Below are positions 1,019 to 54,780 of a DNA stretch of 64,000 nt, one piece after another. The stretch is from Planctomycetota bacterium (GTDB lineage Bacteria; Planctomycetota; PLA2; JAEUHO01): NCBI GenBank assembly GCA_965222115.1, contig CBDCTJ010000001.1, positions 160,001-224,000 on the forward strand. Direction: 5' to 3'. Every line of letters begins with the position of its first letter. Positions within the stretch are counted from its first letter, which is position 1. A model generated the notes under the pieces. It ran no database searches. It saw nothing but the letters and a program-made list of their open reading frames with translations, and had not been told where the DNA came from. Made by a program: the position numbers and the translations under genes.

Positions 1019-1948
1019 TCAATCGTCGAAATCCTGGCGTATGAGCTTGTACACGTCCTCGAACGGTTCTTCGTGAGATAGATCCAAGAAACGCACCACA
1101 CCCGTCTCGGCCAACGCGGCCATCGCCTTGAACTCTCGCGCCATGATGGCTTTGTCATCTAGCGCCAGGCGAAAGGAGTGTCTAAGTAGCTCGATTAGTG
1201 CATCGCCCGCATTGCACGGATGTATGCGAGATGCCGACGCTTCAGGGCGAACGACATAGATGCGTCCAATGCGCGTGAATCCATCGCTAAACCGAATGTG
1301 GGGAACATCTTCTGGTATGAAGCGACGTTTGTCTGCGTAATCGGACACCCGCCTATCTTTGGCAACCGGTGGCAAGAGGCGCGCCGCGTCTCGCGGCCAA
1401 AGACGAATTCCCTGGTAGGTAGCGAGTGCGCTCCAAACGCCGTTCCGCTCTCGGACAACAAGCGAGTCATCCCCGAGATGTTCAAAGCCGCGCAGCGCGA
1501 AATTGAGCGCCAGTGTCGACTTCCCTGCGCCCGTCTCGCCGAGGAAAATGATCGTTCGTCCCTTGGAGGCCACGGCACTCCCATGGACCAAATGTCTTCC
1601 ATGCAATGTAAGAGCGCGGGGTATTGCGTTGTCCAGGAGATAGTGCTCCATCGTGATCGCCGAACAACTCGGCGCCGTCTTGACCACCATGCCGCTTCCA
1701 TTGCGCTTTATGTCTGCGAATAGTTCATTCCACACGACAAGCTTGTACGAATCGTGGGTGCTATGAATGGTAAAGGAGGACGTCTCATCCTCTTCGTCTT
1801 CATAGATGCATGCGCCACCGGGTGACGCCCCATCCCATGTATCGCCACGACGGATATCCAGTAGCGCCTGGCCGTTATCCGCGGTGGGCAAGACATCCGA
1901 TGCGTCCGACATCGAGACGACGATGTCTCCGAATTTGTAGCGCCTCAC
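1019..1948 (-). CDS. HPr-kinase-like lasso peptide kinase (PadeK/ThcoK-like)
   Basis: 'LVHGSAV...FLGETGAGKST...HLGDD' = His motif, Walker A and DD motif; lacks the HprK N-terminal domain; follows RRE and methyltransferase genes. Start placed at GTG 1948, just after the upstream stop (ORF track extends to 2092). Confidence 0.75.
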   Translation of the reverse strand: MRRYKFGDIVVSMSDASDVLPTADNGQALLDIRRGDTWDGASPGGACIYEDEEDETSSFTIHSTHDSYKLVVWNELFADIKRNGSGMVVKTAPSCSAITMEHYLLDNAIPRALTLHGRHLVHGSAVASKGRTIIFLGETGAGKSTLALNFALRGFEHLGDDSLVVRERNGVWSALATYQGIRLWPRDAARLLPPVAKDRRVSDYADKRRFIPEDVPHIRFSDGFTRIGRIYVVRPEASASRIHPCNAGDALIELLRHSFRLALDDKAIMAREFKAMAALAETGVVRFLDLSHEEPFEDVYKLIRQDFDD

Positions 1949-1958
1949 TGCAGAAACC

Positions 1959-3104
1959 CTACTCGGCGTACTTTTCCGCCAACTCTCGAACGAACTGGAG
2001 AGCTGCGTCGCGTGACGGATAGGACTTGGGCGACATTGATTGGACGACGTCGGCAATCTCTTCCGTACTTCCTGTTCCGTCCATCTTGCCAAGTGCCTCG
2101 CGTGCCGTACGGCCTTTAGGGGTCAATGTAGGCCGATAGCCGGATGCATGCTTGCGGGCCATGTCCGCGTTGAACGTCTCTCCCAAGAACTCGGATTGCC
2201 TCATGGTAATGTCCTTGCGACCTGTGCCTCGAACGCTCGCACGCCAAGTCCATATGTATCCGTCGTGCGTTCGCGAACCGCGGAAGCCTATCGTCAATTC
2301 GTCGCCACGGCGCAACTCAACCGCGTCCCGCAGCGGAAAATAGGCTCTTCCGTAGGCGGGCACAGGCATGCCCGGCGAGTTTCGCATTTGAATGTTTTCC
2401 GTGAGATCAGATTCAAACCAGACCTGAGCGGCATCCACCGTTACCGGCCGATGTGCGGTCCAGGTGGCCTGCCCATGAAAGTCCTGCTTAGGTTCTTCGC
2501 GGTATTCAAGTGTTGCCCAATGCCGTGCGGGAAGCACGACCTCTTCGGCTTCGACACATTGCTTCTGCCAGCTATGGACCATCGTTTCGACAAGCGCGGC
2601 CACGTCGATGCCAAAGTCCCAGTCGCCCCAAGGCCGCATGTGATTCGTCCACGTATCGGGTGCGTAAACGGGAGCCACAAACATGCGGTCCCTGAGCGCG
2701 ATCACGGCGGCATCGCTTGTCACAAGTCGGGTCCGGGCGTCGTGTACCGACTGCCAATTGGCTCCATGGTGGGGCATGGTGCCGCGCATATCGGATAAGA
2801 GCACGCTCCCTTGCTCTGGCAAGTCGACGTTGGTTGAAACGTCATGAATCGTGGTTACGCGATCGGCGAATCCCTCCTTCTTGATCAGTTGCTTCGCCAA
2901 TGAAATCGACGCCCTGTCCGACTCAATGGCGTACACATGTTTTGCGCCCGCACGACAGGCCAAGATCGTGAAAAAACCGGTCCCGGACCCAAGCTCCACA
3001 ACGACATCCCCAGCGCCCACCACTTCGTCGATGGCGTCGGCGTACGCAGGTGCGCGTACGGGATCGATCATCGTTCCATAAGCACGTATCGAATATCCAC
3101 TCAT
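1959..3104 (-). CDS. PRMT-like class I SAM-dependent methyltransferase with C-terminal RRE/wHTH-like segment
   Basis: 'MIDPVRAPAYADAI', SAM motif 'VVELGSGTG', 'AGAKHVYAIE', PRMT-like C-terminal beta region 'VWFES..SPG..YG..YFPL'; tail 'ALGKMDGTGSTEEIADVVQ...ALQFVREL'. Confidence 0.7.
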   Translation of the reverse strand: MSGYSIRAYGTMIDPVRAPAYADAIDEVVGAGDVVVELGSGTGFFTILACRAGAKHVYAIESDRASISLAKQLIKKEGFADRVTTIHDVSTNVDLPEQGSVLLSDMRGTMPHHGANWQSVHDARTRLVTSDAAVIALRDRMFVAPVYAPDTWTNHMRPWGDWDFGIDVAALVETMVHSWQKQCVEAEEVVLPARHWATLEYREEPKQDFHGQATWTAHRPVTVDAAQVWFESDLTENIQMRNSPGMPVPAYGRAYFPLRDAVELRRGDELTIGFRGSRTHDGYIWTWRASVRGTGRKDITMRQSEFLGETFNADMARKHASGYRPTLTPKGRTAREALGKMDGTGSTEEIADVVQSMSPKSYPSRDAALQFVRELAEKYAE

Positions 3105-3216
3105 GACGACTCCATCGAATGACGCAAAGAAGCCTTGCGATCAACTCGACCACGACGAAACGGGTGCGCGGGTCATAGAACGGGCAACCGCAAGCACGCG
3201 AAATTTGTCTTGCGAC

Positions 3217-3510
3217 CTAGGAGCCCGGCTCAGCAACGAGCAATCCCTTTTCAAGGAGCTGCTCGACAAGGGCATGAATATCCCCGTTCGCTCGGTCGCG
3301 TTCAACATCAAACTCGCTCGTAAGCTCGTCCAGTGTCCGGGCAATCGAACCGTGTTCGCTTATAGAAGTCCAAATAAACGTACCCACTTCATTGAGGCCG
3401 AAGTACGTCCCAGAGGCGAGGTCTACGAGCACCGACTCTTCCTCGGAGAACGAACGAAAGAGCACATCGGGGGAGACGCGAACGTCTCGAGTTGTCTTGG
3501 ATGCGGTCAT
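3217..3510 (-). CDS. PqqD-family RiPP recognition element (lasso B1)
   Basis: 97 aa; 'ESVLVDLASGTYFGLNEVGTFIW...FDVERDRANGDIHALVEQLLEKGLL' is a canonical RRE pattern. Confidence 0.9.
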   Translation of the reverse strand: MTASKTTRDVRVSPDVLFRSFSEEESVLVDLASGTYFGLNEVGTFIWTSISEHGSIARTLDELTSEFDVERDRANGDIHALVEQLLEKGLLVAEPGS

Positions 3511-3833
3511 AGGTCTGTCCCATCCCCCAAAATTGAGAACAACGATGAATCGCCGGTTGCATTCAACATGGGGAGCTTGCCCGAGGCAACCTCATGTCGC
3601 TCGAATACTCAAACTAGAGGAATTCGACCGGCCAATTGGACGGTCTACGAGGCGAAGCGCCTAAACATCCGCGTTCGAGCGGCACTACCTCTGAATTCGA
3701 CCTTGGCGGCTTCCGAACTGCCTTACAGACGGGCGCACAGTTGCACCGCACATCGAGGAATCCCTCGCCCATGAAGGGTCCGTACGTAGCATTTATGAGC
3801 CCCGTCACGGGGTGCGGAGCTCTGGGAGGAGTC

Positions 3834-4961
3834 ATGGTTCGGATCGCGCTCACAATCCTCGCTGCAATGTTGATCTCGGGATGCGCAGCCCCATTTCTTC
3901 AACGTCCGCAGGCGGCTGACGACTGCCCCTCCTGCCAGCCCGCCTTGAGCGACGAGATCGCAAAGTCGGCATTCGCACACACGGCCGAACCCGATTCCGG
4001 CGACACCTACTACGGCGCCGGCGGGCACCTGATCCCCAGCATCGGCGCGTCGATTCACGGTGGCCGCGTCATTCGTCGCACCAAGGACTGGACACTGGCG
4101 CTTGAAGCCGAGTTGATGGGCCATTTCATTGACGACGAGGCGTTCGTGGACGACGGCAACCCGGCTGCGGACCCCTTCATTCAACTCAAGACGGGTGTGA
4201 AGTTTCGCTCCAACCCCTCGGGCTTTCGCCACTGGACGGCACGAGCCGGTCTCACCTACTTTTACGCGGGGAAAGACCCCAATATTGTCCAGGACGAGGG
4301 CAGCTACCTCGGCGTCTACGGCGGAATTGGTTACGAGACGGACATTACCCAAAACATCACGGTGGGCCCGGAGCTGAGCCTCACGGTCGCATCCAAAGCC
4401 GACGAAATCGACTTCAGTCATGGCGTCGTGCCAACGCTTTCGTGGCGCGTGACGTGGTGGCCGGGTGGAAACGGATGCTCCCTTGACCGCTGGCGCAAGC
4501 CCGGCGAACTCTACATGGACCTTGCGGCAATGGCACTGCCGTCCATAGGCGGCGGTTTCGGTTTCGGCCAGGTGTTCTCGCGCGAAGACGGTAAAACGTG
4601 GTCCTTTGAAGCCTTGGCGGGTCTCCAGTCGCTCGACGACGGCACGCTTTGGGCCGACTCCGATGGAGAGTTTGGTCAGTTCCGTGGCGGCGTCAAGGTT
4701 GCGTTTGCCGACCGGGGCATGGGCCACTGGGTCGGCCGCGCGGGGCTCGCCTTCTTAAGAAACACGGGCGAGATTCAGGGCTTTTCCGACACCGGCGACT
4801 ACTTCGGTGGCTATGTAGGCATCGGCTACGAGTTTGAAATCAATAAGTGGCTCACGATGGGTCCCGAGATCTCTCTCACCGTGGCCGACAAGGAAGGCCT
4901 CAGCGACATCGACATTGAGGTGCTGCCGCAGTTCCTCTGGCACGTCATCATCAAGTTCTAG
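3834..4961 (+). CDS. Putative lipoprotein with two tandem outer-membrane beta-barrel-like repeats
   Basis: GGAGG RBS before ATG 3834; lipobox 'LISGC'; internal repeat 'GSYLGVYGGIGYE..ITVGPELSLTVA' / 'GDYFGGYVGIGYE..LTMGPEISLTVA'; terminal Phe ('WHVIIKF'). Confidence 0.6.
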   Translation: MVRIALTILAAMLISGCAAPFLQRPQAADDCPSCQPALSDEIAKSAFAHTAEPDSGDTYYGAGGHLIPSIGASIHGGRVIRRTKDWTLALEAELMGHFIDDEAFVDDGNPAADPFIQLKTGVKFRSNPSGFRHWTARAGLTYFYAGKDPNIVQDEGSYLGVYGGIGYETDITQNITVGPELSLTVASKADEIDFSHGVVPTLSWRVTWWPGGNGCSLDRWRKPGELYMDLAAMALPSIGGGFGFGQVFSREDGKTWSFEALAGLQSLDDGTLWADSDGEFGQFRGGVKVAFADRGMGHWVGRAGLAFLRNTGEIQGFSDTGDYFGGYVGIGYEFEINKWLTMGPEISLTVADKEGLSDIDIEVLPQFLWHVIIKF

Positions 4962-4980
4962 ACCGCGCAAAGACTCCTGG

Positions 4981-6117
4981 ATGGCACGTATCCTGCAGGT
5001 CTGCAACACGGAATTCTACCTCCGTGGTTTCCTAATGCCTCTCGTTCATGGCCTTCGAGATCGCGGACACGACGTGGAGGCGGTGTGTGGCACCACGAGT
5101 GATAAGACGATCGAAGGCGTGCAAGTCCATTCGTTTTCATTTCCGCAATCACCGAACCCCTTGACGTTCTTTCGTTGTATTCGACGATTCCGTACATTCC
5201 TAAGGCAACATCGCTACAACGTAGTCAACGCGCACAATCGCAATGCGAGCATCGTAGCGCGCATCGCCGCATGGATGGAGCCTGTTCCACACAACATCTA
5301 CACGGCACACGGATTCTATTTCCATGACAATCAGTCGCGTGCAGCGTACGAAATGACTGTGCTTCTTGAGCGCGCGCTTTCGTGGACCAACACGCACACA
5401 TTCAGCCAGAGCCGAGAGGACCTCGATCGACTGGCGCGACGAGGCGCGTCCCTGATCCGCCGATCGCATTGGATTGGCAACGGGATCGATCAAGCGCGAT
5501 TCGAACGTCGCAGAGGCAAACGTGAAGCAGAGGCGAGCCTTGGCCTCGAACCGGACGTGTTTCGGATCGCGACGGTTGGACGCATCGTGCGTGGCAAGGG
5601 ACTCGAGGATCTCGTTGGCGTGCTACCCAGGCTTCGCGATCGCATCCCAAACGCCCGCCTGTTGATCATTGGCGGCAACATCGATCTAGACATCGAGCCC
5701 TGGGCCGAGGAGCTCTTCGCTTCTATCGACGCACGGGGACTACGTGAGTACGTACACGTCACGGGGCTCACGGATCGTGTGCCGGACTACTTGGAGGCGT
5801 CCGATGTGTACGTGTCGCCTTCCCGCCGCGAGGGCATTTCTCGATCCATGCTTGAAGCCATGTCGTTGCCACTCCCCGTCATCGCGACGCGCGTACGTGG
5901 CGCGCGCGAGGTCCTTCGACATGGGGAGAATGGCCTGCTGTACTCGCCGGGAGACTTGAAGGCGCTCGCCCAACGAATCGGGTCGTTGGCGTCAAACGCT
6001 CGACTCCGCGACGATCTCATGAAGGCGGCTAGACTGACGGTTGAGCGCACCTATACGCAAACCGCCTATGTTGAACGCCAGATCCGCGCCATTGATGAGA
6101 TTCTCCCAATCGCTTGA
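4981..6117 (+). CDS. Glycosyltransferase family 4
   Basis: 'IYTAHGFYF', 'IGNGID', 'VGRIVRGKG', 'PSRREGISRSMLEAMS'; start at MARILQ. Confidence 0.9.
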   Translation: MARILQVCNTEFYLRGFLMPLVHGLRDRGHDVEAVCGTTSDKTIEGVQVHSFSFPQSPNPLTFFRCIRRFRTFLRQHRYNVVNAHNRNASIVARIAAWMEPVPHNIYTAHGFYFHDNQSRAAYEMTVLLERALSWTNTHTFSQSREDLDRLARRGASLIRRSHWIGNGIDQARFERRRGKREAEASLGLEPDVFRIATVGRIVRGKGLEDLVGVLPRLRDRIPNARLLIIGGNIDLDIEPWAEELFASIDARGLREYVHVTGLTDRVPDYLEASDVYVSPSRREGISRSMLEAMSLPLPVIATRVRGAREVLRHGENGLLYSPGDLKALAQRIGSLASNARLRDDLMKAARLTVERTYTQTAYVERQIRAIDEILPIA

Positions 6118-6247: not shown

Positions 6248-7420
6248 CTAGAAGTGCCAAGTGACGTGCCACTTGAGCATGGGGAATGAGGCGTCATCAC
6301 CACCGTGGGAAATGTTGGTTCCATAGACGAACGCAACTTCCGGCCCGGTCGAGATGTTGTCGGTGATGAACCAATCGAATCCGATGCCGGCATAGGCGCC
6401 GAGGTAGGAACCGTCGTTATCCACTGAGACCGTGTCCCAGCTAATGCGAATCGGTTCGCCGGTAAACTCAAACAACGTGGCGCCAGCGCGCACGAACGGA
6501 CGGAACGCGGAGTTTTTGTTTCCAAAAGCAAACTTGGCACCAAGGCGCAACGCCCAGAACTTCCCTGTCTCGGGCTCCTCCAGGATTTCCTCCCAGAGAT
6601 CTTGGTACGTGGTACTTACCTCAAGGGAAGTCGTTGCTCCGAAGTAGGTGCCAATCTCCTTACCCACGGTGATGCTGCCACCAATACCGGGGGAAATCTC
6701 GAACGCGCCCTCGACATACCACTTGTCGCAACAGCTCTTGCACGCGCAGACGGGCTTCTTCTTGCAGCACGTCTTCTTCTTGCATGCGCCACAAGCTGCT
6801 GCGGGCGAGGTGCGCGGGGCTACACCGCGGTCACTGCGCATAATGGTGGTACCGGCGATGGGCGCAGGCGTCACGTAGGGTTGCGCCATTGGCGTTGCGT
6901 AAGGCGTTGCCGGGTAGGCCGATGCGTAACCCGTAGCCGGCGCGGGTGAATAGGGCACGACCGGGGCAGGAGCGTAGTACGGAGCAGGAGTCGGGGTATA
7001 GGGAACCACAGGAACCGGCTCGCTGTAGGGGATGCTCTCGCTTGGCATAGGTACCGTTTCGGTGTACGGCGCCGGCATGCCATTCGAAGCTCCCTCAGCA
7101 GGGGGAAGTGGCACCGGCTCACCGGCCGGAGGTGCGTCTTCCGTAGCAAGTCGACTTACGTCATTCGAGGGTGCGACAACAACACCTTCCGTAGTCACGC
7201 CGGTCGTTGTGGCGTTCGCGGAACCCATCGCGCCGGTCGAATCCGCAGACGGCGCATTGATCGTCGCGAGTGCGTTGCCCTGTGCAGGCAATACGCCGTA
7301 GTCCAAGTCGGAACCGGAACCAAAGATGGCCCCCGATCGCTCGACACTCGATGCGCAGGCCGAAAGTCCAATGGCCGCCGCGAAGCACGCGCAAAGCGCT
7401 ACTGTGCGAATCATGTTCAC
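6248..7420 (-). CDS. Putative lipoprotein: Pro/Tyr-rich linker, Cys/Lys cluster and C-terminal beta-barrel (paralog of 3834..4961 repeats)
   Basis: Lipobox 'GLSAC'; 'CGACKKKTCCKKKPVCACKSCC'; 'GSYLGAYAGIGFDWFITDNISTGPEV...LKWHVTWHF'. Confidence 0.6.
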   Translation of the reverse strand: MNMIRTVALCACFAAAIGLSACASSVERSGAIFGSGSDLDYGVLPAQGNALATINAPSADSTGAMGSANATTTGVTTEGVVVAPSNDVSRLATEDAPPAGEPVPLPPAEGASNGMPAPYTETVPMPSESIPYSEPVPVVPYTPTPAPYYAPAPVVPYSPAPATGYASAYPATPYATPMAQPYVTPAPIAGTTIMRSDRGVAPRTSPAAACGACKKKTCCKKKPVCACKSCCDKWYVEGAFEISPGIGGSITVGKEIGTYFGATTSLEVSTTYQDLWEEILEEPETGKFWALRLGAKFAFGNKNSAFRPFVRAGATLFEFTGEPIRISWDTVSVDNDGSYLGAYAGIGFDWFITDNISTGPEVAFVYGTNISHGGDDASFPMLKWHVTWHF

Positions 7421-7607: not shown

Positions 7608-8042
7608 TTAGCCCAGCTTTCCCAACCGAGTGTGACGACCCGGTCCCTCACCAACCGTTGGCGTTCCGTCAACCTCAACCCACGCATGGGCGCCAAAGTC
7701 CTGTTTCTTCCCACTTGCTGCGATATGAATCTCACTCGATACACCTGCCTGCGCATAGAGCGCCCGTGCGCCGAGGGCTTGCGGCAAACAAGACGCGCGC
7801 GGGACAAAGCGCGGCGTGGACGAAACGGCGGATTCGATCTCGGGTGGAGGCACACGAGACGATGCACGTAACTGGGGCGTGTACGCCGCCCCTCGACCCA
7901 AGAGCGCCAACGTCTTCTTGGTGCCGACCACGTTCAAGCTCATGCGGGCCGCGGCCACCCAAACAATAGCCCAAAATCGGATCTGGCCTCGTCGAATGCT
8001 GCGGGGACGTCGGGTGACAGGAAAGCGCACGGTTGCCCTCAC
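7608..8042 (-). CDS. Lasso peptide leader peptidase B2 (transglutaminase-like)
   Basis: Catalytic 'SCLPQAL' and 'FGAHAWVEVDG' motifs; 144 aa; exact start uncertain. Confidence 0.88.
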   Translation of the reverse strand: MRATVRFPVTRRPRSIRRGQIRFWAIVWVAAARMSLNVVGTKKTLALLGRGAAYTPQLRASSRVPPPEIESAVSSTPRFVPRASCLPQALGARALYAQAGVSSEIHIAASGKKQDFGAHAWVEVDGTPTVGEGPGRHTRLGKLG

Positions 8043-8078: not shown

Positions 8079-9839
8079 TCAAGCCAGCGGAACGTCATCG
8101 AACGGACCCTTCACGACGCGAACATGTCCGCGCTCTACGAGTAGACACCGATCGGCCGAGTTAAGAGTGCTTCGTCGGTGCGCAATGATGAACGTCGTTC
8201 GCCCCTCCATGAGCCGCTTCAGCGCGCCCAAGATTTCACGTTCCGTATCGACGTCGAGAGCACTCGTCGGTTCGTCGAGTATCAGTATCGGGGCATCGCG
8301 CAAGAACGCGCGCGCAATTGCAACGCGCTGCCGCTCGCCGCCGGAGAGCTTCACGCCACGCTCGCCAACCTGCGTGTCATATCCCTCGGGCATCGCTGAG
8401 ATAAACGCATGCGCGGAAGCGCGCCGGGCGGCATCTTCAACTTGTTCGCGGGAGGCATGTACATCGCCGACGATGATGTTGTCCACAATCGAACCGGAAA
8501 ACAGAACCGGGTCTTGTTGAACAATGGCGAACTGTCTCCTGAGATCTGCAAGAGCAATCGATCGAATGTCGACGCCATCCAGACTCACACTGCCCGAAAG
8601 AGGATCGTAAAACCGCGGAAGAAGCGAGAGCAATGTGCTCTTCCCCGATCCGGTGCGCCCGGCCACGCCCACGCAACTCCCGGCGGGAATCTCCGCGCTC
8701 ACGGCGTCAAGGACATGCCGCCCGTCTCCGTAACCAAAACGCACATCGCGCAGTGAGACATCGCCGCGGGCCCGATCGAGCCTTTTTGGATGCACCGCAT
8801 CTAAAATCTCCGGTTCTTCGTCGAATACGTCATAGACCCGGCTCACGCGAGCCAAAGCGCTTTGCAGATCGGCTACGCTTGCGCCAAGTGCTCGAATCGG
8901 TGCGTAGAGTTGAGACAGATACGTAAGCGCCATTAAGAGCTCGCCCAAAGTGATTTTGCCCTGCAACACGTGGCGCGTCCCTACGACCAATACTAGCGCG
9001 CCCCCTATAGCTGCGGCCATGCCCATGAGGAAGCCAAGTGCGTTTCGCGCGCGTACGGCCCCCATTTGATCATTGATGGCCGAGCGGTTCTTCTCGATGT
9101 GTGCCGCCTGCTGACGGGACTCCAGTCCATAGGCCTTTACCACGCGGATCGCGTTCAAAGATTCTGACACGATCGAAAGCGCAGCACTGTCGCTCTCATG
9201 CGCGGTCCGCCATCTACGCCTGAGCGCCCGCCGAAACATCTCCACCAAAACGAATACAACGGGCGCCCCGAGCAACGCAATGCCCACGAGCGTCGCATCG
9301 ATCTGCGCAGTAACGATTAGCAACAGCACGACCTTGGCCAGAAGAGGCATCATGGTGAGCATGCCTTCCATGACAACACTCTGAATGGCATACACATCAA
9401 CTTGCGCGCGATAGAGCAGATCCGAAGTTTTGTTGCGCTGATGAAACGCGAGCGACAAACGCTGCAAGTGGCCCAGAAGTTTCGCGCGAAAGTTCCGCAC
9501 GAGGTGCTCACTCGTCCATGAGTAATAAACCCAGTAGAAGTAGCGCCTCACGAGCGTAACGATCGCGATCACCACTAGCCCTACCGCGCAGAGGTAAAGC
9601 AACGCCTCTCCGTCCTGGGTCCACGACGTGAGAAGCCAGTTGGTGAGGTAGTCGGGTGCCGGCTCATCCCCAATCACACAGTCAACGACGATTTGAAGCG
9701 GAATTGGAAACAGTAGCGCCAGGGGCGCCGCGAGCAGCCCAAGCACCAACAACGCCGCCAAGTGTTTCCAAAGCGGACGCGCCTCACGAAAGAGCCGGCG
9801 ATAGAGTGTCCAGTCACCAAGGCGTGTGTATGGAGACAT
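8079..9839 (-). CDS. ABC exporter, fused permease/ATPase (candidate lasso D)
   Basis: N-terminal TM domain; Walker A 'GRTGSGKST', 'LSGGERQR', 'ILDEPTSALD'; directly upstream of B2. Confidence 0.9.
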   Translation of the reverse strand: MSPYTRLGDWTLYRRLFREARPLWKHLAALLVLGLLAAPLALLFPIPLQIVVDCVIGDEPAPDYLTNWLLTSWTQDGEALLYLCAVGLVVIAIVTLVRRYFYWVYYSWTSEHLVRNFRAKLLGHLQRLSLAFHQRNKTSDLLYRAQVDVYAIQSVVMEGMLTMMPLLAKVVLLLIVTAQIDATLVGIALLGAPVVFVLVEMFRRALRRRWRTAHESDSAALSIVSESLNAIRVVKAYGLESRQQAAHIEKNRSAINDQMGAVRARNALGFLMGMAAAIGGALVLVVGTRHVLQGKITLGELLMALTYLSQLYAPIRALGASVADLQSALARVSRVYDVFDEEPEILDAVHPKRLDRARGDVSLRDVRFGYGDGRHVLDAVSAEIPAGSCVGVAGRTGSGKSTLLSLLPRFYDPLSGSVSLDGVDIRSIALADLRRQFAIVQQDPVLFSGSIVDNIIVGDVHASREQVEDAARRASAHAFISAMPEGYDTQVGERGVKLSGGERQRVAIARAFLRDAPILILDEPTSALDVDTEREILGALKRLMEGRTTFIIAHRRSTLNSADRCLLVERGHVRVVKGPFDDVPLA

Positions 9840-10138
9840 GGAGCCGTCGTGTCCCTAAGAACCTGGGAAACCAACATACGTCAACGAGCCAGATCAACCA
9901 CGCCCTGTCCCGCTTGGAATCGCCTCCACGTTCGAGTACGCCCAAGATCACCATCCCCCCGGAACCGTTGACTTGACAGGGCGCGAGCATTTGCGATAGC
10001 CGGTCGCGACCGGGCATCACCGCCGCTTGTCTTGACTTCGGCGACATACTCGGAATCGATTGGAGGCGGAGGGGAACGGGCGGTGAAACATGTAACCGGC
10101 GCGGGTCGTTTCGTACACCCGCATTTGCGCACCCGGCA

Positions 10139-10969
10139 TTGATCGGTGGAGCTAGAGTGTTCCCTGTGACGGAAGGTCCCGAAATTCAATCCATGCTCCT
10201 GGGACGCAATTACCAGGACGGCGACGCGCGCGTGACGTGGAATTCTCGGTGTGGGCGGGCAGACGCTGCCCTCGCTCGCGGGCACGTCAAGCCGGAGAAC
10301 GAGGACGCGCTCCTGGTTCGATTTCGTGATGATACGTGGCTGGCGCTGGTTGCCGACGGCCATTTGGGACACGCCGCCAGCCACGAACTGACCGAGGCGT
10401 TTGCGCGGGCACCTGCGGGGATTACGGGCTCGCCGATGGCACTGGGGCACTTCATCGAAGAGACGCTCCATGGCGCGACACCCCAGCCGGAGGCAGGCAC
10501 TACCCTCACCGTGTGCGCATTGGACATGCGACGACGCGAGCTCTTTGGTTACTCGTGGGGCGACTCGACGGCGGCGATCCTTCGTTCCGGCAAACGTCCC
10601 CGTGTGCTGACCAACAAAAATGGCAACTTCATTCGACTAGACGAATCGATACCGCCTCCACGCCCACAAACGTTTTCATGCCGCATACCCTTTGAGAGCA
10701 CGTTGCTGCTCTACACGGACGGCGTTGACGAATGCCACTACCGGCATCCCGGATCTTCGATCCGCATTCATCACATTCAGAATATCTACGAACGAGCGCG
10801 GGCTTCATCGTCGTCAATGGCTGAACAACTCTTGGACGCAGCACTCGATGGTCTGTCGGGTATGCCGGGCGGCGAAGACAACATTGCCATCCTCTCGATC
10901 ACGCCCGATCAGCGTGCCAAGACGGGCGCGGGTGCTACGCCTGAACGATTCGTGCCCGTGGGTCCTTAA
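10139..10969 (+). CDS. PP2C/PPM-family Ser/Thr phosphatase
   Basis: 'ENEDA', 'LVADGHLG', 'WGDS', 'LLYTDGV', 'GGEDNI'; start may be a few codons later. Confidence 0.8.
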   Translation: MIGGARVFPVTEGPEIQSMLLGRNYQDGDARVTWNSRCGRADAALARGHVKPENEDALLVRFRDDTWLALVADGHLGHAASHELTEAFARAPAGITGSPMALGHFIEETLHGATPQPEAGTTLTVCALDMRRRELFGYSWGDSTAAILRSGKRPRVLTNKNGNFIRLDESIPPPRPQTFSCRIPFESTLLLYTDGVDECHYRHPGSSIRIHHIQNIYERARASSSSMAEQLLDAALDGLSGMPGGEDNIAILSITPDQRAKTGAGATPERFVPVGP

Positions 10970-12266: not shown

Positions 12267-12388
12267 GGGGCGGGAGTATAGGGCCGGTGTCGAGCGCCCA
12301 AGAAAAAGCGCTCACCGAAATATCGGATCAAAACGTTTTCAGGTGCGACTACGTAATTGACGTAGGGCAGCAAAAGGGAAATGACCAC

Positions 12389-13462: not shown

Positions 13463-13531
13463 GTGCCGATGAGAAAGCGCGAAAACCCGATGACCGATTC
13501 CGGGCAACGCACGCCAAGACGATAGAGTTAC

Positions 13532-17216: not shown

Positions 17217-17227
17217 CTTGACATCTA

Positions 17228-31532: not shown

Positions 31533-31552
31533 AATGGAAACAGAAGTGGAAC

Positions 31553-32644: not shown

Positions 32645-32697
32645 GGGTCTGGAGCTCGGTCTAGTGGCGATTGCACTAAACCTCTGGGGAAAAACTC

Positions 32698-33267: not shown

Positions 33268-33279
33268 CACAAGTTCACC

Positions 33280-37139: not shown

Positions 37140-37373
37140 AGGACCTGTCTCCCTCCGACGAACGGTCCTCAGTCCGCCGACCGCTAGCGTATCCATTACT
37201 CGGTTCACCTGACGAGAACTGGTGCTAGAGAGTCGAGGATTACGACCTAGTAGCCCAATCTTCGTATGAGGGTTCGTATCGAGTTAGCAGTCAGGTACGG
37301 CTGATGGGAAGCACGCGGTCCTCGAGCACCGCGCGTAGGGTCTCAGTCGAGTTTTGGCAGCGAGGATCGAACC

Positions 37374-38567
37374 GTGGTGCGTCGGCGAATCGGGATCATC
37401 ACCACATTTGCCTACCTGTTCACGTTGCCTTGGATGGCGCACAGGTTTCTACTGCTGGACAAACACCAAGTCATCGCCGCAGATCTGTTGTTCGCCGCTG
37501 CCGCTGTCGTCGCATTGATTCGCATCACGGATCGTGACGTTCGTACGCGCCTCTTGAGGAGCCGTGTCGCATGGGGATGCGGGGCGTTTTTCGCTGTAAC
37601 GGCAGCAGCAGCACTTGCAGGCCCGACCCCCGAGGCCAGCAAGACGGTATTGCTTCGAACGCTCTACTTGGTCTCAGTCCCTCCGGTTCTGATTGTCAAT
37701 CTCGGTGACGTACGTCGTGCCTGGATCGCACGAGCATGGTTGGGCGGCGCTGCCCTCGCATGCGCCGTGGCAGCGTGGGGAGTGGCTTCGTACTACGTGA
37801 GCAGACCTACATTCGCGGTGGCTGCCCCCGGCAACATCCCCAGTGGATTCGTTCCCCGGATTCAAGGGCCGTTTCACTCGCCGAACACATTCTGCAACTA
37901 TCTGATTGCGACACTGGCTGTAGCGGCGTGGTGCGCGAGTCGCCCCATCGCCAGAGGATGGGCCATTTGCTGTTCGCTCACGGGCGTCTTTACGCTTTCA
38001 CCGGGACTAGGAGCGCTTGCCGTCATGGTCTCACGGATGTGGTCGAGTCGCCTGTTGCGTGGACTTGCCTAGTGTGCAGCGGTAGGAAGCGTTGTGTTGG
38101 CCGCACTCTCCATTAGCGATCTTATGCGTGGCGAAATCGAGGCGTCACATCGCGTCCGCTTGTGGGAGCAATCGTTGGAAACGATGGTCGCCCATCCACT
38201 CACTGGCGCGGGGCTGGGTAACGAGGTATGTGCCACGCATCACGTGACGCCGAACGGCGAACGCCAGCGGCTCAATGACCCGCACGAGACCTTCTTGAGC
38301 ATCGGTGCACAGTCCGGACTGCCGGCCCTCATGGCGTTCATGCTGCTGCTTGTCCTTGTCATTCGTGCGAGACGAACCCTTGCACCGAGCCTCGCCTTGG
38401 GCGTGGGACTCTGCTGGATACTCCACGGCCTATCAGGCTCGTTTGAGGAAACGCGGCATGTGTGGGCATTGCTGGGGCTGCTCTGTGTCGCTGAGACCTC
38501 AGGACGCCTCACCGGAGACACGGCCTTTGCGCCGTCGGATGAGCCAACGAGCCAACAAGATGCCTAG
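37374..38567 (+). pseudogene. O-antigen ligase/Wzy_C-like membrane protein interrupted by one in-frame TAG (38070-38072)
   Basis: ORFs 37374..38072 and 38094..38567 are in the same frame; 'RIQGPFHSPN' before the stop and 'RVRLW...HPLTGAGLG...PHETFLSIGAQSGL' after it. Confidence 0.7.
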
Positions 38568-38963: not shown

Positions 38964-39192
38964 GATTGGCCGATTGCGAGAGTGTTAACATCCCATAAAC
39001 GTAGCCGGCACCTGGTCGAATCGGTCGAGCAAAGTGAATCCTCCGTGGCCTACCCCTACAGCTAAATACGAGCATGGGAATCAACTCGACCGTTTTCGTT
39101 CATCGCCGGACCGGCGAGTACCTACAGAATTTCTTGCGTTCGATCGTTCTCCCCCTACAACCACAACCATTGGTGGCGGGGAGAGACTCGTG

Positions 39193-40635
39193 ATGAAGCA
39201 TCCATGGAAGACGTTCCCGGGGATACGAAGGCGAGTTGTCATCATCGCGGTGGTTGTCTCGATCGCTGCGGCCCTGATCTTCGCAGTCGGACATACCCTC
39301 CTGGCTGTTGCGCTTGTTGCGGGCACGCTCACAACTTCTCTCCTGGTGCCCGTAACAAGCCATTTTGCCGATCGGCTCGGCGCCGTCAGCGAACCCGGCG
39401 GACGCGCCGTACACGATGCGCCAACACCGCTGTTCGGCGGTATCGCGCTCATGCTGCCGGTGCTTGGACTCCTCACATGGTCTGCACTCCAGGGTAACCA
39501 CTATCTACTCGGCGTGACGATTGGCAGCGCCATCATCTTCGCGCTTGGCGTGCTGGACGATGTGAATGGCGTTCGCGCACGAACCAAGCTCATTGTGCAG
39601 CTCTTGGCCGCGACGGTACTTGTGGCCTTTGGCGCGTCGATTCCGGCACTCGGCGTTCACGGCTTGGGGACACTCTCCACAGGCTGGGCAGCCATCCCCC
39701 TGGCCGTGGTCTTCGTCATCGTCATGACCAATGCGATGAACATTGTGGACGGTCTCGACGGACTGGCGTCGAGTATGGGCCTCTTGGCGGCCGGCTCGCT
39801 CGCTCTGCTAGGTATCCACCCGCTGATCACCGTAACGCTAGCGGGCTGTTGCCTGGGGTTTTTGATATTCAATCTTCCGCGTGCGAGGGCCTTCCTGGGT
39901 GACACGGGTAGCCTCACGTTGGGATTCCTGCTTAGTGCGTTGGCACTCAAACTTCCCGTTGAACAGAACGTGCCCCTTGCCCTTGCCCTCTTTGCCTACC
40001 CCGTCGGAGACGTTGCGCTGGCCATCGCGAGGCGTGTGGCTCGCGGCAAACCCATCATGTCGCCCGATTCGGGACACGTACACCACAAGCTGCGTGAACA
40101 CCTCGGCGGCACGGCCCCCGCGCTCTTGTTCATTGTCAGCATGACCGCAATCGTCACGCTGGTCGGCATGCTACGCCCCACGATCCTGTTCTTAGGGCTC
40201 GCCAGCGCCGCCTGGATCTCGCTTGCTGCCATGCTGGCCGTTGCAGGCAACTACCGAATGAACACCGTGCTGGCCTCCAGAAACCCCTTCCGCCGCCTCC
40301 ACGTGGTTCACCGCTATGCGGCCGACAGCATCCGCTTGGCTCCTTCATTGGCACACGTCAATCAGGCGCTTCGCCATGCATTTGAGGCGCTCAATGTGGA
40401 TGTGGCGCTGCTGGAGTCCGTTACCGGCAAGACGCTGAATCCAAAGTTTGACGCCTTGAGGGCCGTAAAGGCCCCCGCCAAGGCGTCGACCATGACACCT
40501 GCGGTCCAGCGAGAGCGCATCAATCTCGTGGTGGATATCCTCGCCCGCGCCTCAAATCGAATTGATGCGCTTGAACGAAGCGGGAATCGGCAGACAGTCT
40601 CAACGGCTCGAAGGCGGCGATCGGCGGTTTCTTAA
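39193..40635 (+). CDS. WecA/TagO-like undecaprenyl-phosphate GlcNAc-1-P transferase
   Basis: 'PTPLFGG', 'GVLDD', 'NAMNIVDGLDGLA', 'FLGDTGS', 'PDSGHVHH'. Confidence 0.88.
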   Translation: MKHPWKTFPGIRRRVVIIAVVVSIAAALIFAVGHTLLAVALVAGTLTTSLLVPVTSHFADRLGAVSEPGGRAVHDAPTPLFGGIALMLPVLGLLTWSALQGNHYLLGVTIGSAIIFALGVLDDVNGVRARTKLIVQLLAATVLVAFGASIPALGVHGLGTLSTGWAAIPLAVVFVIVMTNAMNIVDGLDGLASSMGLLAAGSLALLGIHPLITVTLAGCCLGFLIFNLPRARAFLGDTGSLTLGFLLSALALKLPVEQNVPLALALFAYPVGDVALAIARRVARGKPIMSPDSGHVHHKLREHLGGTAPALLFIVSMTAIVTLVGMLRPTILFLGLASAAWISLAAMLAVAGNYRMNTVLASRNPFRRLHVVHRYAADSIRLAPSLAHVNQALRHAFEALNVDVALLESVTGKTLNPKFDALRAVKAPAKASTMTPAVQRERINLVVDILARASNRIDALERSGNRQTVSTARRRRSAVS

Positions 40636-40706: not shown

Positions 40707-40853
40707 TTAAGGCATTCGCATTGCGTTTCGACCGTCTGAAAGGTGTGGTTGCTCCATATATACCCCGGAAGCACTCTGCGTCAGTGAGCGAATCGAGCCG
40801 AAGCTCTGCAGATTGGGAGCAGCATATCGTCGACGTGTCTTTGCCTTGGTCAT
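40707..40853 (-). CDS. Lasso peptide precursor A1 (48 aa; predicted core SASGVYMEQPHLSDGRNAMRMP)
   Basis: Leader 'YAAPNLQSFGSIRSLTQ' fits YxxPxLxxxGxxxxxT(-2); Glu at core position 8; GGAG RBS; next to cyclase. Confidence 0.85.
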   Translation of the reverse strand: MTKAKTRRRYAAPNLQSFGSIRSLTQSASGVYMEQPHLSDGRNAMRMP

Positions 40854-43044: not shown

Positions 43045-44172
43045 ATGATGCACCAGCGGTTCAAAATGAGGTGCGCCTTGGCCTACGTGAGAGAAGAGGT
43101 AGATTTCCGATCCTCAATCCGAATCTCCGTTGCAATGGGTACATACAATGGCGCACAGTTTCTATATGAGCAACTGGAGAGCCTCGCGTCGCAGCAAACA
43201 CTTCCGCTTGAATTGGTCGTATGCGACGACGACTCGCAAGACGCAACGCTGGATATTCTATCTGACTTTGCCTCATCGGCGCCATTCCCCGTACATGTCC
43301 ATCGGAACGAACACAGACTTGGTTTTACCAAGAATTTCTTGAGAGCTGCCAGCCTCTGCATAGGCGAGTGGGTGTCGTTTTGCGATCAAGATGATGTATG
43401 GCTACCCAACAAGCTCTCAAACGCGGCGAATGCCATTGTGCGCTACAAGGAGGCAAACTTGATTCTTCAGAAGGCGCACGTATGTGATGAGAATCTATCC
43501 AAGGCCGGCACACTATTTCCCACGGGATTTGCGGCTGGCGCCTATGGACCGCGGAAGATCTACGGCTTCTGGCTATGGCCTGGATTCTTACAGACAGTTC
43601 GGCGCGAGTTATTGAACTTGTCAGTGAACACGACCTTGCCGCCGAATTACGACTCAGGTATGCGACTGCAGTCGCACGACAAGTGGGTGTGCATGCTCGG
43701 CAATTCGTTGGGAGGAGTCGTCATACTCGCTCCTGCGTCGGCCTTGTATCGCCGACACCGGCGCACCGTTAGCAATAGCGGCGGCGCCCGATCTATGCGC
43801 CAACGCGTAAAAAAGTCGATATCTGTGGGAGCAAGTCGCTACCGATTTCTAGAGCAAGTTGCTATTGCATGTGGCAACCATTTGAGAGAGATAGCCGTCA
43901 CATCCAATCGGGAAGACTGGCGCAAAATGCTCCGCGCGTCCGCAGTCGCGTTCGACCGGCTTGCGGGTGTACAGGCGCGTCGGGCAACTATTCATGGAAG
44001 CCGCTCCATATTGACTCGAACGCGGCATTTCGGCTCGCTGCTCATACGGGGTGGCTACGTAGGTCCGACGTTTGTGGCGTCGGGGTGGAAGAGCGCGGCT
44101 AAGGATGTACTAGCTGTATTCACACCCTCACTGCTACGCCGGATGCGGAACTTCGGGAACGGAAAGAACTGA
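43045..44172 (+). CDS. Glycosyltransferase family 2
   Basis: 'ISVAMGTYNGAQFL..QLES', 'VCDDDS', 'FCDQDDVW', 'HDKW', 'YRRH'; start uncertain. Confidence 0.88.
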   Translation: MMHQRFKMRCALAYVREEVDFRSSIRISVAMGTYNGAQFLYEQLESLASQQTLPLELVVCDDDSQDATLDILSDFASSAPFPVHVHRNEHRLGFTKNFLRAASLCIGEWVSFCDQDDVWLPNKLSNAANAIVRYKEANLILQKAHVCDENLSKAGTLFPTGFAAGAYGPRKIYGFWLWPGFLQTVRRELLNLSVNTTLPPNYDSGMRLQSHDKWVCMLGNSLGGVVILAPASALYRRHRRTVSNSGGARSMRQRVKKSISVGASRYRFLEQVAIACGNHLREIAVTSNREDWRKMLRASAVAFDRLAGVQARRATIHGSRSILTRTRHFGSLLIRGGYVGPTFVASGWKSAAKDVLAVFTPSLLRRMRNFGNGKN

Positions 44173-46054: not shown

Positions 46055-46231
46055 GCCGCAGTTTTCGCTCCCACCACACGCGCGGGCACTCGGGCAGCCG
46101 CTATATTCGACGCAGTAGACCAAACCGAATTGTCTCGGGCGCACAACGAGTACGATAAGATCTTCTAATTCCTATCTCAACGGCAACGCGACTCAGTAAG
46201 CCCGCTCGATCATTCGTAACTACACATGCAT

Positions 46232-46375
46232 CTACGACATTTGCTTTTTCGGGGCATTGCCGTTTCCCTCTGCCTTTGACCCCGAGCCGCCCAGTGTGAG
46301 ATCCTCAATAGTCCCAAGCTGCCGAAGGATCGGCGAGGCGTACGACTTGGCTGGCGGTCTAGGAGCGGACTGCAT
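46232..46375 (-). CDS. Lasso peptide precursor A2 (47 aa; predicted core GGSGSKAEGNGNAPKKQMS)
   Basis: Leader 'YASPILRQLGTIEDLTL'; Gly1, Glu8, C-terminal Ser; GGAG RBS. Confidence 0.87.
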   Translation of the reverse strand: MQSAPRPPAKSYASPILRQLGTIEDLTLGGSGSKAEGNGNAPKKQMS

Positions 46376-46635
46376 GTAGGTCTCCAGAAACGTAGACCGG
46401 GTACTTGAGACTTGCTGGCGCGTCAACAGGCTATCACAGCAACCTGGGGATCTTGAGAACTTAAGGAAAATGATGCCACCAAGAAGCATCGACAGGTGGT
46501 AGCAGCGCGTACATGTGCGTGTCGGTTGAGTTCGGCTGAATCCGTAGAGAACAGAACAATCGGTCGGTGCACGCGAAATCCTCAACGGCTTCCGCGAAAC
46601 ACCCGCGTGGCATGTAGCCGACCGCCATAGATTCG

Positions 46636-47628
46636 TTATGGTTTCGACCGAAACCACCACTTCGCTTCTACGTAGGCTCGCGCAAGCCCTATCGCCTCGC
46701 CGGGGCCCTCCAGTAACGAGATCTTTCGCATGAGCTGGCGTAGTCGCCCTGGCTCACGAAACTGAACCAGTTCGTCGGCTCCAGGAGCACATCGGGGGGA
46801 GACATCCTGAACCCGGGCCTCGTGCCGCCTCAACATATCCACCACAGCCAGGCTTGCGCGGATGGCCTTGCCGAGGCGAAACCTGTGGGCCCGATCAAGC
46901 AGGCGTTCGCGGCCGCCATCGCCAAGACGATACAGGAGACGCGAAGCGTCTACATAGGCGATGCACGGAACCCAGAACTGATGGCGCGATGCGTGAACCA
47001 AGTGAAATAGTGTTTCGTCTAAGGGGTCGAGGAGAAAGGTTGTGGGAGCGTCGGGCAGGGGTAGGGCACGTTGCCACACGTCGTTCAGGTCGATGCGGCT
47101 TCGGTAGGGCTGCGTAATGGAGCGGTGCAGGTCGATGCAACCCGTCCATGGCGCGGGTTGGCCGAGTGTCAATGCGTGGTGTGCCCTCGACAGTCCATGA
47201 AACTTGCCGTCGATGGTGTAGCCGAGTTCTTTGAGCGTGTCTGTTGCGCGTTGGAACTGCGCCTGGGGCACGAGAAGGTCGAGGTCGTCCATCGGTCGCA
47301 GGGCGGCATCAGCATAAATCGTACGGACATATGACGCGCCCTTGATGAGCGCGACTTTGACGGAAGCGTTGCCCAGCGCATCGAGTGCTTCGCGAAGTTG
47401 ACGTTCGCGCTCGAGTGCTTGGGCGGCACTTGCAATGAAGTCGTTTCGAAAAGCTTCATGCCCACGATGAAAGCATAGGGGCGCAAGCCGGTTGTGTCGG
47501 ACGAGGCCCACGGGCATAGGATGATCGTCGAGACGTGCGGAGTTTTCGTCCGCGGTCATGAGTAGCTGGAGCAAACGCCGCATTGCAGCGATGTCATGAT
47601 CAGCGACGTTAGGGTCCATGGAAGCCAA
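46636..47628 (-). CDS. Nucleotidyltransferase (NTP_transf_5-like, PsmN/PadeN-like)
   Basis: 'LIKGASY', 'RPMDDLDLLVP', 'IDLH', 'HLVH'; directly upstream of precursor A2. Confidence 0.8.
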   Translation of the reverse strand: MASMDPNVADHDIAAMRRLLQLLMTADENSARLDDHPMPVGLVRHNRLAPLCFHRGHEAFRNDFIASAAQALERERQLREALDALGNASVKVALIKGASYVRTIYADAALRPMDDLDLLVPQAQFQRATDTLKELGYTIDGKFHGLSRAHHALTLGQPAPWTGCIDLHRSITQPYRSRIDLNDVWQRALPLPDAPTTFLLDPLDETLFHLVHASRHQFWVPCIAYVDASRLLYRLGDGGRERLLDRAHRFRLGKAIRASLAVVDMLRRHEARVQDVSPRCAPGADELVQFREPGRLRQLMRKISLLEGPGEAIGLARAYVEAKWWFRSKP

Positions 47629-54768: not shown

Positions 54769-54780
54769 ACGATCATTCTG

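Follow-up and report, generated by a model that had tools for sequence, protein, structure and literature searches.

A two-precursor lasso peptide pathway dispersed through a probably sulfated polysaccharide locus of a planctomycete

Gene content and organization of the locus

The stretch of DNA analysed here (the window) consists of 64,000 nucleotides, positions 160,001 to 224,000 of contig CBDCTJ010000001.1 (GenBank assembly GCA_965222115.1), from an uncultured member of the Planctomycetota whose metagenome-derived genome of 4.55 Mb is 90% complete. On the basis of a list of open reading frames (ORFs) and of Pfam and NCBIfam matches, ten genes of a lasso peptide pathway, including those for two precursors, were identified, all of them on the minus strand and spread over 1–47.6 kb. 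The left side contains the genes for a kinase, a methyltransferase, a PqqD-like recognition element (B1), a leader peptidase (B2) and an ATP-binding cassette (ABC) exporter; the right side contains those for precursor A1, cyclase C1, cyclase C2, precursor A2 and a nucleotidyltransferase of family PF14907. The same ten genes and their common strand had been named in an earlier, sequence-only reading of this DNA, which placed them in two arms, and the domain searches confirm these genes. The split holds as well, but the number of parts is higher: B1 and B2 are separated by a gap of 4 kb, with two outer-membrane barrel genes and a family 4 glycosyltransferase (GT4) gene in it, and a family 2 glycosyltransferase (GT2) gene sits between the two cyclase genes, so that the pathway is broken up into at least four blocks. 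In this respect it departs from the single contiguous cluster by which class II lasso peptide systems are in part recognized.

The genome contains one B2 gene, one PqqD (B1) gene and one PF14907 nucleotidyltransferase gene, and its only lasso-type cyclases are C1 and C2, next to one distant AsnB-like protein on another contig (C7). Since B1, B2 and the PF14907 gene are each present as a single copy, the two arms must cooperate. Neither is complete by itself, as the sequence-only reading had stated.

Precursors and lasso enzymes

Precursor A1 (40707–40853, minus strand, 48 residues) has the leader YAAPNLQSFGSIRSLTQ and the core SASGVYMEQPHLSDGRNAMRMP, with Ser1 and Glu8; precursor A2 (46232–46375, minus strand, 47 residues) has the leader YASPILRQLGTIEDLTL and the core GGSGSKAEGNGNAPKKQMS, with Gly1, Glu8 and a C-terminal Ser. 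Both leaders follow the pattern YxxPxLx3Gx5Tx with Thr at position -2, and both cores have a small residue 1 and an Asp or Glu at position 7–9. A search of all six frames of the 4.55 Mb genome with the pattern Y..P.[LIVM]...G.....T., followed by a tail of 10–40 residues, gave three matches, two of which are A1 and A2 beside the cyclases; this placement is far above chance, and upholds both the lasso assignment and the two precursor-cyclase pairs that had been proposed. In an alignment of 12 precursors from the phylum, the Tyr, Pro, Gly and Thr(-2) residues of the leader are invariant, and an acidic residue is found at core position 7–10 in all 12.

The B1 protein (3217–3510, minus strand) is a recognition element of the kind found for peptides that are made on ribosomes and modified after translation (RiPPs); it matches PF05402 with 64.8 bits (cut-off 23.4) and the lasso-specific model NF033530 with 51.6 bits, which is under the cut-off of 70. 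The clearest match of the B2 protein (7608–8042, minus strand) is to NF033537 (62.1 bits, cut-off 33). Cys85 and His119 are invariant in the B2 alignment, from which a third, acidic residue is plausible; this suggests a transglutaminase-like cysteine protease, as in class II lasso peptide systems. Cyclase C1 (41068–42843, minus strand) matches PF00733 with 66.5 bits and NF033535 with 177.9 bits; cyclase C2 (44246–46054, minus strand, start at 46054) is also above the cut-off of PF00733, and its best NCBIfam match is again NF033535. The two cyclases are 53% identical. All six precursor-adjacent cyclases examined, from this and other genomes, start with (M/V)SG or VVSG, and C1 and C2 start with MSG, whereas the other AsnB-like proteins examined start with MCG (three out of three, i.e. 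two in the polysaccharide locus of another genome of the phylum, G325, and the one on contig C7). As the Cys of MCG is the glutaminase nucleophile, C1 and C2 appear to be asparagine synthetase-like cyclases without the glutaminase cysteine.

The kinase gene (1019–1948, minus strand, ORF to 2092) probably starts at the GTG at 1948, 10 nt past the stop codon of the methyltransferase gene. Its HGSAV...GxxGxGKST...DD block aligns to HPr kinase and is invariant in an alignment with the kinases of four other lasso loci. Other lasso loci encode homologues of this protein (86 bits with the kinase of G325), and the one in G240, also from the phylum, exceeds the PF07475 cut-off with 36.9 bits. These features point to an HPr-kinase-like enzyme as in the paeninodin/pseudomycoidin subtype. 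The nucleotidyltransferase (46636–47628, minus strand) is a clear PF14907 member (103.3 bits, cut-off 31.2) and probably of the PsmN type, PsmN itself being, as we presume, a member of this family. The ABC exporter (8079–9839, minus strand) has a fused transmembrane domain (PF00664, 122.6 bits) and nucleotide-binding domain (PF00005, 108.3 bits), and a homologue of it (273 bits) lies beside the cyclase of genome G153.

What had been called simply a methyltransferase is indeed an S-adenosylmethionine-dependent enzyme (1959–3104, minus strand, 381 residues, class I methyltransferase domains), and can be described more precisely as similar to protein arginine methyltransferases (PRMTs): in a comparison with PDB structures it matches PRMT7 (E 7.9e-17) and PRMT6 (E 1.6e-13), and its homologues carry PRMT-type Pfam domains. 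Full-length homologues adjoin the kinase gene or the nucleotidyltransferase gene in G240 and G325, and also occur in the 80 loci from many phyla described below. By its defining gene set the predicted pathway is of the paeninodin/pseudomycoidin type, and the accessory genes of that type, which the sequence-only reading had reported, are borne out by the PF14907 score and by the conserved blocks of the kinase.

Polysaccharide and sulfation genes

The right part of the interval between the two arms is occupied by export and assembly genes. These encode Wzc, a tyrosine autokinase and co-polymerase (33280–35982, minus strand; TIGR01007 147 bits, cut-off 108), the outer-membrane polysaccharide exporter Wza (36078–37208, minus strand; PF02563 57.4 bits, PF22461 83.6 bits), a Wzy_C protein of the O-antigen ligase/polymerase family (37374–38567, plus strand) and a WecA-type initiating phosphoglycosyl transferase (39034–40635, plus strand; PF00953 119.3 bits). 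The Wzy_C gene carries one in-frame TAG at 38070–38072; the frame is identical on either side, and the family match spans the break when the codon is read as X. This may reflect a pseudogene, an error of sequencing at the depth of about 3x, or read-through.

The left part of the interval starts with genes for a Ugd-type dehydrogenase, an NAD epimerase and an FkbM methyltransferase (10935–14413, genome-typical GC), followed by a low-GC cassette (14410–32788, GC 0.51–0.57) with genes for CysN-CysC, CysD, CysC, a sulfotransferase, Wzx, RmlA, a dehydratase, a HAD protein, GT4, a multi-pass membrane protein, a second sulfotransferase, an ATP-grasp protein, a deacetylase and again GT4; three GT4 genes lie between the arms. 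The multi-pass membrane protein (26732–27970, 412 residues) has no family match in Pfam. Of the two sulfotransferases, one matches Sulfotransfer_1/_3 with about 30 bits and the other Sulfotransfer_2 with 56.5 bits. Judged by these predicted functions, Wza, Wzc, Wzx, the initiating transferase and the glycosyltransferases would form a Wzx/Wzy-dependent Wza-Wzc locus, and the genes for synthesis of 3'-phosphoadenosine-5'-phosphosulfate (PAPS), together with the sulfotransferases, suggest that its glycan is sulfated.

In the cassette an inverted repeat of 93 nt was observed (14474–14566 and 29147–29239, 71% complementary), of which one arm falls within the adenylylsulfate-kinase end of cysNC while the other follows the second sulfotransferase gene; it may be the remnant of a second cysC.

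Base composition and assembly

The GC content is 0.51–0.57 at 14.0–33.0 kb, compared to 0.58–0.61 around it, and the GT2 gene at 43–44 kb is also low (0.538); native GC is found in the lasso genes and in those of Wzc, Wza, WecA and Ugd. The low-GC block, which includes rhamnose-type genes, resembles the exchangeable central region of capsule-type loci, and its 19 kb partly explain the main gap of 30 kb between the arms. This composition bears on the possibility that the neighbourhood is accidental, a polysaccharide island or variable cassette having landed in a lasso cluster, so that the two systems have only a plastic location in common. The lower GC of the block and of the GT2 gene fits such an insertion, as does the position of all lasso genes on one strand, which is expected of an interrupted contiguous operon. 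It is opposed by the interleaving of the two gene sets at several points, by the native GC of Wzc, Wza, WecA and Ugd, and by the edges of the cassette, where no tRNA gene, no integrase gene and no meaningful flanking repeat was found. An accidental neighbourhood is considered unlikely on these and on the comparative data given below. The glycosyltransferase genes inside both arms, which the sequence-only reading had taken to favour coupling of the two systems, carry little weight, as both are on the opposite strand and GT2 has a foreign, low GC.

Parts of the arrangement were recovered in independently assembled contigs. Those from two samples span 13400–27043 and 13400–21285, and another spans 31496–33399 and continues for about 7.7 kb, in each case with 0 differences. 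Both edges of the low-GC block are bridged, with an even depth of about 3x, and the right arm was found in four public runs of one study, whereas no RNA run was found that contains this DNA; none of the independent contigs spans the whole 47 kb. An assembly artefact that joins unrelated DNA could be suspected in a genome from a metagenome, with a depth of about 3x in public runs and GC steps at 14 and 33 kb. Given the bridging contigs, their complete identity and the even depth, this is extremely improbable, and the distance between the arms is most likely no product of misassembly. Elsewhere in the genome one contig of 48 kb (C6) has a GC content of 39.7%, while the remaining six contigs are at about 58.6%; C6 may be a contaminant or a foreign element.

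Relatives within the phylum

The four named proteins with at least 55% identity to CcoN of the window all belong to Planctomycetota. Among 40 close relatives no cyclase was found at E 1e-30 or better and B2-like genes were found in two; a single-protein scan of genome contigs also gave no relative. The nearest cyclase in a collection of 5.8 billion proteins is 32% identical. Since none of the near kin has the cyclase, synteny with them is of no use here. The fact that no close relative has kept the cluster could also be read as a sign of decay, i.e. that the rearranged cluster makes its peptide no longer, in line with the unusual dispersal of the genes, the position of A1 downstream of its own cyclase and the stop codon in the Wzy_C gene. 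All ten lasso genes have intact frames, however, the Cys and His required for catalysis persist along with the leader motif, and the two A-C pairs, diverged to 53% and 40% identity, both retain Glu8 and Thr(-2), which makes a decaying pathway very unlikely.

In a wider sample of the phylum, in which many contigs are short, B2 was found in 33 of 401 genomes, with the present genome counted, and all 33 also have PF14907 and Poly_export genes. In five of the 32 other genomes (G150, G153, G240, G224 and G325) B2 lies at most 30 kb from Wza on the same contig, where 0.91 such pairs are expected from Wza counts and genome sizes (Poisson P 0.0024; counted by genus four, P 0.014). Not all of these represent an embedded lasso cluster: on contig C45 of G224 and in G153, Wza is 19.6 kb and 10.5 kb from B2, respectively, with unrelated genes in between (WD40 and kinase genes, and CarAB), and these two were rejected as embedded cases while still being counted in the distance statistic.

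The embedded cases differ in their gene order. In G150 the order is glycosyltransferase, Wza, Wzc-like, cyclase, precursor, kinase, precursor, ABC exporter, nucleotidyltransferase, B2, B1, GT2, AlgX-like, GT2 and epimerase. In G240 it is WecA, Bac_transf, ABC exporter, GT2, CapD, nucleotidyltransferase, B2, cyclase, precursor, kinase, methyltransferase, GT2, Wzx, three GT4, Wza and Wzc, so that the lasso genes continue into the polysaccharide genes on the same strand. In G325, glycosyltransferases, FkbM, the lasso-type methyltransferase, the nucleotidyltransferase and a giant ice-binding-like protein precede kinase, precursor and cyclase, followed by unrelated genes, B2, Wzy_C-TPR and Wza. In G224, from the same genus as G325, precursor and cyclase lie within a locus of Wzc, WecA, Wzx, GT2, two GT4, Wzy_C-TPR, CysD, CysN and Wza, and B2 and the nucleotidyltransferase are on a different contig; this is a second split pathway, again with sulfate-activation genes.

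Several further observations were made in these genomes. Giant ice-binding-like proteins (PF11999) adjoin the kinase-precursor-cyclase or precursor-cyclase genes in both genomes of genus g183 (L013:9780–13058 and L016:3533–6487). Four loci (L019, L020, L021 and L027, of G344, G162, G180 and G330) belong to one family with B1, B2, nucleotidyltransferase and kinase genes and short precursor-like peptides of the form F-x-E-P-K-L-T-K-H-G-D-A-T-x-I-T-x plus 8–11 residues; a cyclase was not found in the 17–20 kb around B2 in these loci. In five other cases (G156:C19, G213:C18, G414:C2, G310:C3 and G124:C68) a PF14907 gene lies 1–21 kb from Wza on a contig that has no B2, and this family may serve an independent function related to polysaccharides. 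A second RiPP system, consisting of an MbnB/TglH/ChrH and DUF2063 pair (L025:548–2324, G163), adjoins a lasso cluster; the detailed flank annotation covered the loci other than L025 and L026, which have 75% GC.

The methyltransferase-bearing subfamily in other phyla

An alignment of the methyltransferase was scanned against species-representative genomes, which yielded 447 relatives, and the best 80 loci (L031–L110) were kept. These loci belong to Acidobacteriota, Gemmatimonadota, Chloroflexota, Pseudomonadota, Myxococcota, Cyanobacteria, Planctomycetota and further groups. In tblastn searches with the proteins of the window and its relatives, 70 of these best 80 loci contained the kinase, 58 a cyclase of at least 100 bits, and 56 both. 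The usual gene order is B1-B2-cyclase-precursor-kinase-methyltransferase-(ABC exporter)-nucleotidyltransferase. Cyclases and precursors are duplicated elsewhere too (L058, L043 and L033).

The leader motif was found 76 times in 65 of the 80 loci; four matches (L031 +13970, L079, L081 -7114 and L098) were set aside as spurious, and 72 were kept. Most of these precursors end in [KR]-T-x. A core Met was considered as a marker of the methyltransferase, as it is present in seven of seven precursors from the phylum with this enzyme and in none of five without it. In the subfamily it is present in 52 of 72 precursors, which amounts to an enrichment, not a rule, and the marker was dropped.

As polysaccharide markers, matches of at least 80 bits to Wza, Wzc, WecA or Bac_transf were counted within the available flank (up to 10 kb). 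Such a marker is present near 18 of the 56 loci with kinase and cyclase, or near 10 of 35 when only loci with full 10 kb flanks are counted. The markers are often directly adjacent to the lasso operon and co-directional with it, in two recurring patterns: either WecA(-CapD) ahead of B1, or nucleotidyltransferase-x-Wzy_C-Wza-Wzc-epimerase behind. A lasso-specific clade of Wzc was considered and rejected, as the window Wzc scores 137–171 bits with lasso-linked Wzc proteins of other phyla and 157 bits with that of G240 from its own phylum.

Part of the related genomes keep lasso genes near Wza, Wzc, WecA or Bac_transf (the five phylum genomes, by distance, and the 18 loci); for the rest such a linkage was not found in the DNA examined. 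The sequence-only reading had left open whether a polysaccharide locus had been inserted or both form one system. Since members of the subfamily turn up repeatedly within or next to Wza/Wzc/WecA loci, both in other phyla and in several families of this phylum, a one-off insertion without functional link is disfavoured. The enrichment of polysaccharide genes beside the subfamily, both in the phylum and across phyla, and the repetition of a split pathway near cysDN in G224, weigh likewise against an accidental neighbourhood, which has in its favour that most clusters of the subfamily elsewhere are contiguous.

A probable single module of lasso and polysaccharide genes

We consider it fairly probable that the locus encodes a working lasso pathway, with kinase, PRMT-like methyltransferase and PF14907 nucleotidyltransferase, that is dispersed through a Wzx/Wzy-type, probably sulfated, polysaccharide locus and forms one co-regulated module with it. 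A number of observations weigh against this. With respect to the linkage, no marker was found in the available DNA for 38 of the 56 loci (25 of the 35 with full flanks), including locus L085 of the Pirellulaceae, and in three genomes of the phylum (G344 and G162, both complete, and G006) every Wza is over 90 kb away from B2. As kin genomes are not independent, the P-values of the enrichment err on the optimistic side. With respect to the enzymes, the kinase matches PF07475 with only 24.2 bits, under the Pfam cut-off of 33.3, and the cyclases score 178–197 bits with NF033535, their best NCBIfam match, far under its cut-off of 525. The target of the kinase is uncertain, as A1 ends with Pro, not Ser, and a C-terminal Ser is found in only six of the 72 subfamily precursors. 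With respect to the glycan, the Wzy_C gene is interrupted by its TAG, and the CysD of the window is the sole copy in the genome, so sulfate activation may be a housekeeping function and not a dedicated one. With respect to co-regulation, a scan for the sigma-54 promoter consensus gave 39 matches where 32.5 ± 5.7 are expected, which is not above chance. Scans for sigma-70 promoters and terminators in 38–50 kb were also at chance level.

The loci without marker and the genomes with a distant Wza indicate that the linkage is not obligatory. Some of the clusters without a nearby marker are contiguous. An obligatory coupling is refuted in the very terms that the sequence-only reading had set for it, namely relatives with a lasso cluster unlinked to polysaccharide genes (the 38 loci, among them L085, and the genomes G344 and G162). 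The lasso-polysaccharide linkage is recurrent but facultative.

For the module as a whole we propose the following scheme, by analogy with known systems. The single B1 would bind the YxxPxLx3Gx5Tx leader common to A1 and A2, and the single B2 (Cys85/His119) would cleave after the residue next to Thr(-2). C1 and C2, probably recent paralogues that each lie beside their own precursor and lack the glutaminase cysteine, would activate Glu8 by adenylation and join it to Ser1 (A1) or Gly1 (A2) in a macrolactam ring of eight residues. The kinase would phosphorylate a C-terminal Ser or Thr of the linear precursor (Ser19 of A2), the nucleotidyltransferase would put a sugar (hexose) on that phosphate, as PsmN does, the PRMT-like enzyme may methylate the tail, and the ABC pump would carry the product out. 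The dispersal probably represents a rearranged form of the normally contiguous B1-B2-cyclase-precursor-kinase-methyltransferase-(ABC exporter)-nucleotidyltransferase operon, which in many lineages is wired next to WecA or Wzy_C-Wza-Wzc, and which in the window would have been pulled further apart by the 19 kb low-GC cassette of sulfation and glycosyltransferase genes. Most likely, peptide and glycan are synthesized and exported together, within one co-regulated module of the envelope or matrix, in which a covalent link between peptide and glycan is possible.

Covalent coupling to glyco- or sulfo-lasso conjugates, which the sequence-only reading had raised, would go beyond such a module. Once exported, the lasso peptide would prime or accept a sulfated, undecaprenyl-linked glycan that is built by WecA and the glycosyltransferases and flipped by Wzx; a Wzy_C-family ligase, or the nucleotidyltransferase acting on phospho-Ser, would transfer it, and Wza/Wzc would release a glyco-lasso conjugate. 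The Wzy_C family also takes in O-oligosaccharyltransferases. WecA or Wzy_C-Wza-Wzc adjoin the lasso operon co-directionally in several phyla, a phospho-Ser lasso peptide is hexosylated in a PsmN-dependent way according to the available part of PMC6993621, and sulfotransferase genes are reported for some Firmicutes lasso clusters in the accessible text of PMC8498205. About 70% of the subfamily loci, however, are without these polysaccharide genes within 10 kb, a stop codon breaks the Wzy_C gene of the window, hardly any of the 80 loci has sulfation genes (sulfotransferase in one, CysD/CysN in none), and the window Wzc is no closer to lasso-linked Wzc proteins of other phyla than to that of G240. 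We therefore regard covalent coupling as rather unlikely. In its strongest form, the lasso peptide would be a structural part of the glycan coat and not a free, antibiotic-like product, its phospho-tail accepting the WecA-initiated sulfated glycan and Wza/Wzc releasing a protease-proof, peptide-capped polysaccharide; this we hold to be quite unlikely. If it were true, the wiring to Wzy_C-Wza-Wzc or WecA across phyla would mark a new class of peptide-glycan conjugates.

Relation to known systems

The closest described systems are the paeninodin (pade, Paenibacillus) and pseudomycoidin (psmCAKB1B2ND, Bacillus) clusters, which share with the window the split B1/B2, the asparagine synthetase-like cyclase, the HPr-kinase-like kinase, the PsmN-type nucleotidyltransferase and the ABC exporter; in addition, A2 ends with Ser, the known kinase target. 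According to the available text of PMC8498205, the lasso kinase acts on the C-terminal Ser of linear precursors, and that of PMC6993621 describes a PsmN-dependent hexose attached on the phosphate. The window differs in its Gram-negative planctomycete host, in the distribution over at least four blocks in 47 kb, in having two precursor-cyclase pairs, an extra PRMT-like methyltransferase and a precursor (A1) without C-terminal Ser, and in the interleaved outer-membrane barrel, Wza/Wzc and sulfation genes. Polyphosphorylated lasso peptides of proteobacteria (SyanK type, Zhu et al. 2016) also come from Gram-negative hosts and kinase-bearing clusters, as summarised in the accessible part of PMC8498205; these clusters are compact, and that part describes no link to polysaccharide genes.

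An association with polysaccharide genes is already known from Bacilli: as far as the accessible text of PMC13381572 (Nat Commun 2026) goes, paeninodin-like and LPP clusters are embedded in capsular polysaccharide loci and are up-regulated synchronously with an eps gene, and the role of the peptide is left open, with speculation on biofilm. Compared to these kinase-type lasso clusters within a polysaccharide locus, as that text presents them, the window represents another phylum and envelope type, no SipW-type LPP partner is seen in it, its polysaccharide genes separate the lasso genes themselves, and a PAPS/sulfotransferase cassette is present. Apart from PMC13381572, a search of a limited literature collection gave no paper that places lasso clusters in polysaccharide loci, and none on PRMT-like enzymes in lasso clusters; among the matches listed, going by title and abstract, none describes a lasso cluster in Planctomycetes.

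On the polysaccharide side, the window resembles capsule and exopolysaccharide loci of the group 1 type, with Wza, Wzc, Wzx, a WecA initiator, glycosyltransferases, sugar-nucleotide genes and a variable centre of lower GC; it differs from these Wzx/Wzy loci by the PAPS synthesis genes, the two sulfotransferases and the RiPP pathway threaded through it. What is new is an unusually dispersed, two-precursor, PRMT-tailored member of the polysaccharide-linked lasso subfamily, in a phylum for which this search gave no described case.

The function of kinase-type (paeninodin-like) lasso peptides is the question at issue, and PMC13381572, on the evidence of its available part, is the only paper found that addresses it. 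The linkage is now also seen in a Gram-negative planctomycete, in other families of its phylum, and in Acidobacteriota, Gemmatimonadota, Chloroflexota and Pseudomonadota, with WecA or Wzy_C-Wza-Wzc as recurring partners, and in the window, an extreme case, the peptide genes are scattered among the sugar genes. The pattern suggests that peptide and glycan share a role in the envelope or matrix. It is of interest because an association that was published without an explanation is extended to further phyla, and because partner genes are named that can be tested by genetics in cultivable relatives; it also draws attention to a PRMT-like tailoring enzyme that is widespread in lasso clusters and unstudied.

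Other genes in the window

The genes that separate B1 from B2 encode an outer-membrane beta-barrel protein (3636–4961, plus strand; PF13505 33 bits), the GT4 glycosyltransferase (4834–6117, plus strand; PF00534 117 bits) and, downstream of B2, a second outer-membrane beta-barrel protein (6248–7420, minus strand; PF13505 31.8 bits). The GT2 gene between the cyclases is located at 43045–44172 on the plus strand (PF00535 84.6 bits).

Directly upstream of the nucleotidyltransferase gene, a domain search identified a gene for an FHA-GAF sigma-54 activator (47652–49568, minus strand). A sigma-54 activator that is 41% identical to it lies next to the nucleotidyltransferase in two Acidoferrum loci (L071 and L104). 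A protein phosphatase of the PP2C/SpoIIE type (10139–10969, plus strand; PF07228 37.5 bits) is encoded between the ABC exporter and the Ugd-type dehydrogenase, near the peptide kinase, the Wzc tyrosine kinase and the FHA-domain sigma-54 activator; an ORF in the same place on the minus strand (9881–10471) looks spurious. Genes in the last part of the window (51034–63983) code for a GT9 heptosyltransferase, a P-type ATPase, DsbD_2 and a set of cbb3-type oxidase proteins, one of them a multi-haem protein of 1142 residues.

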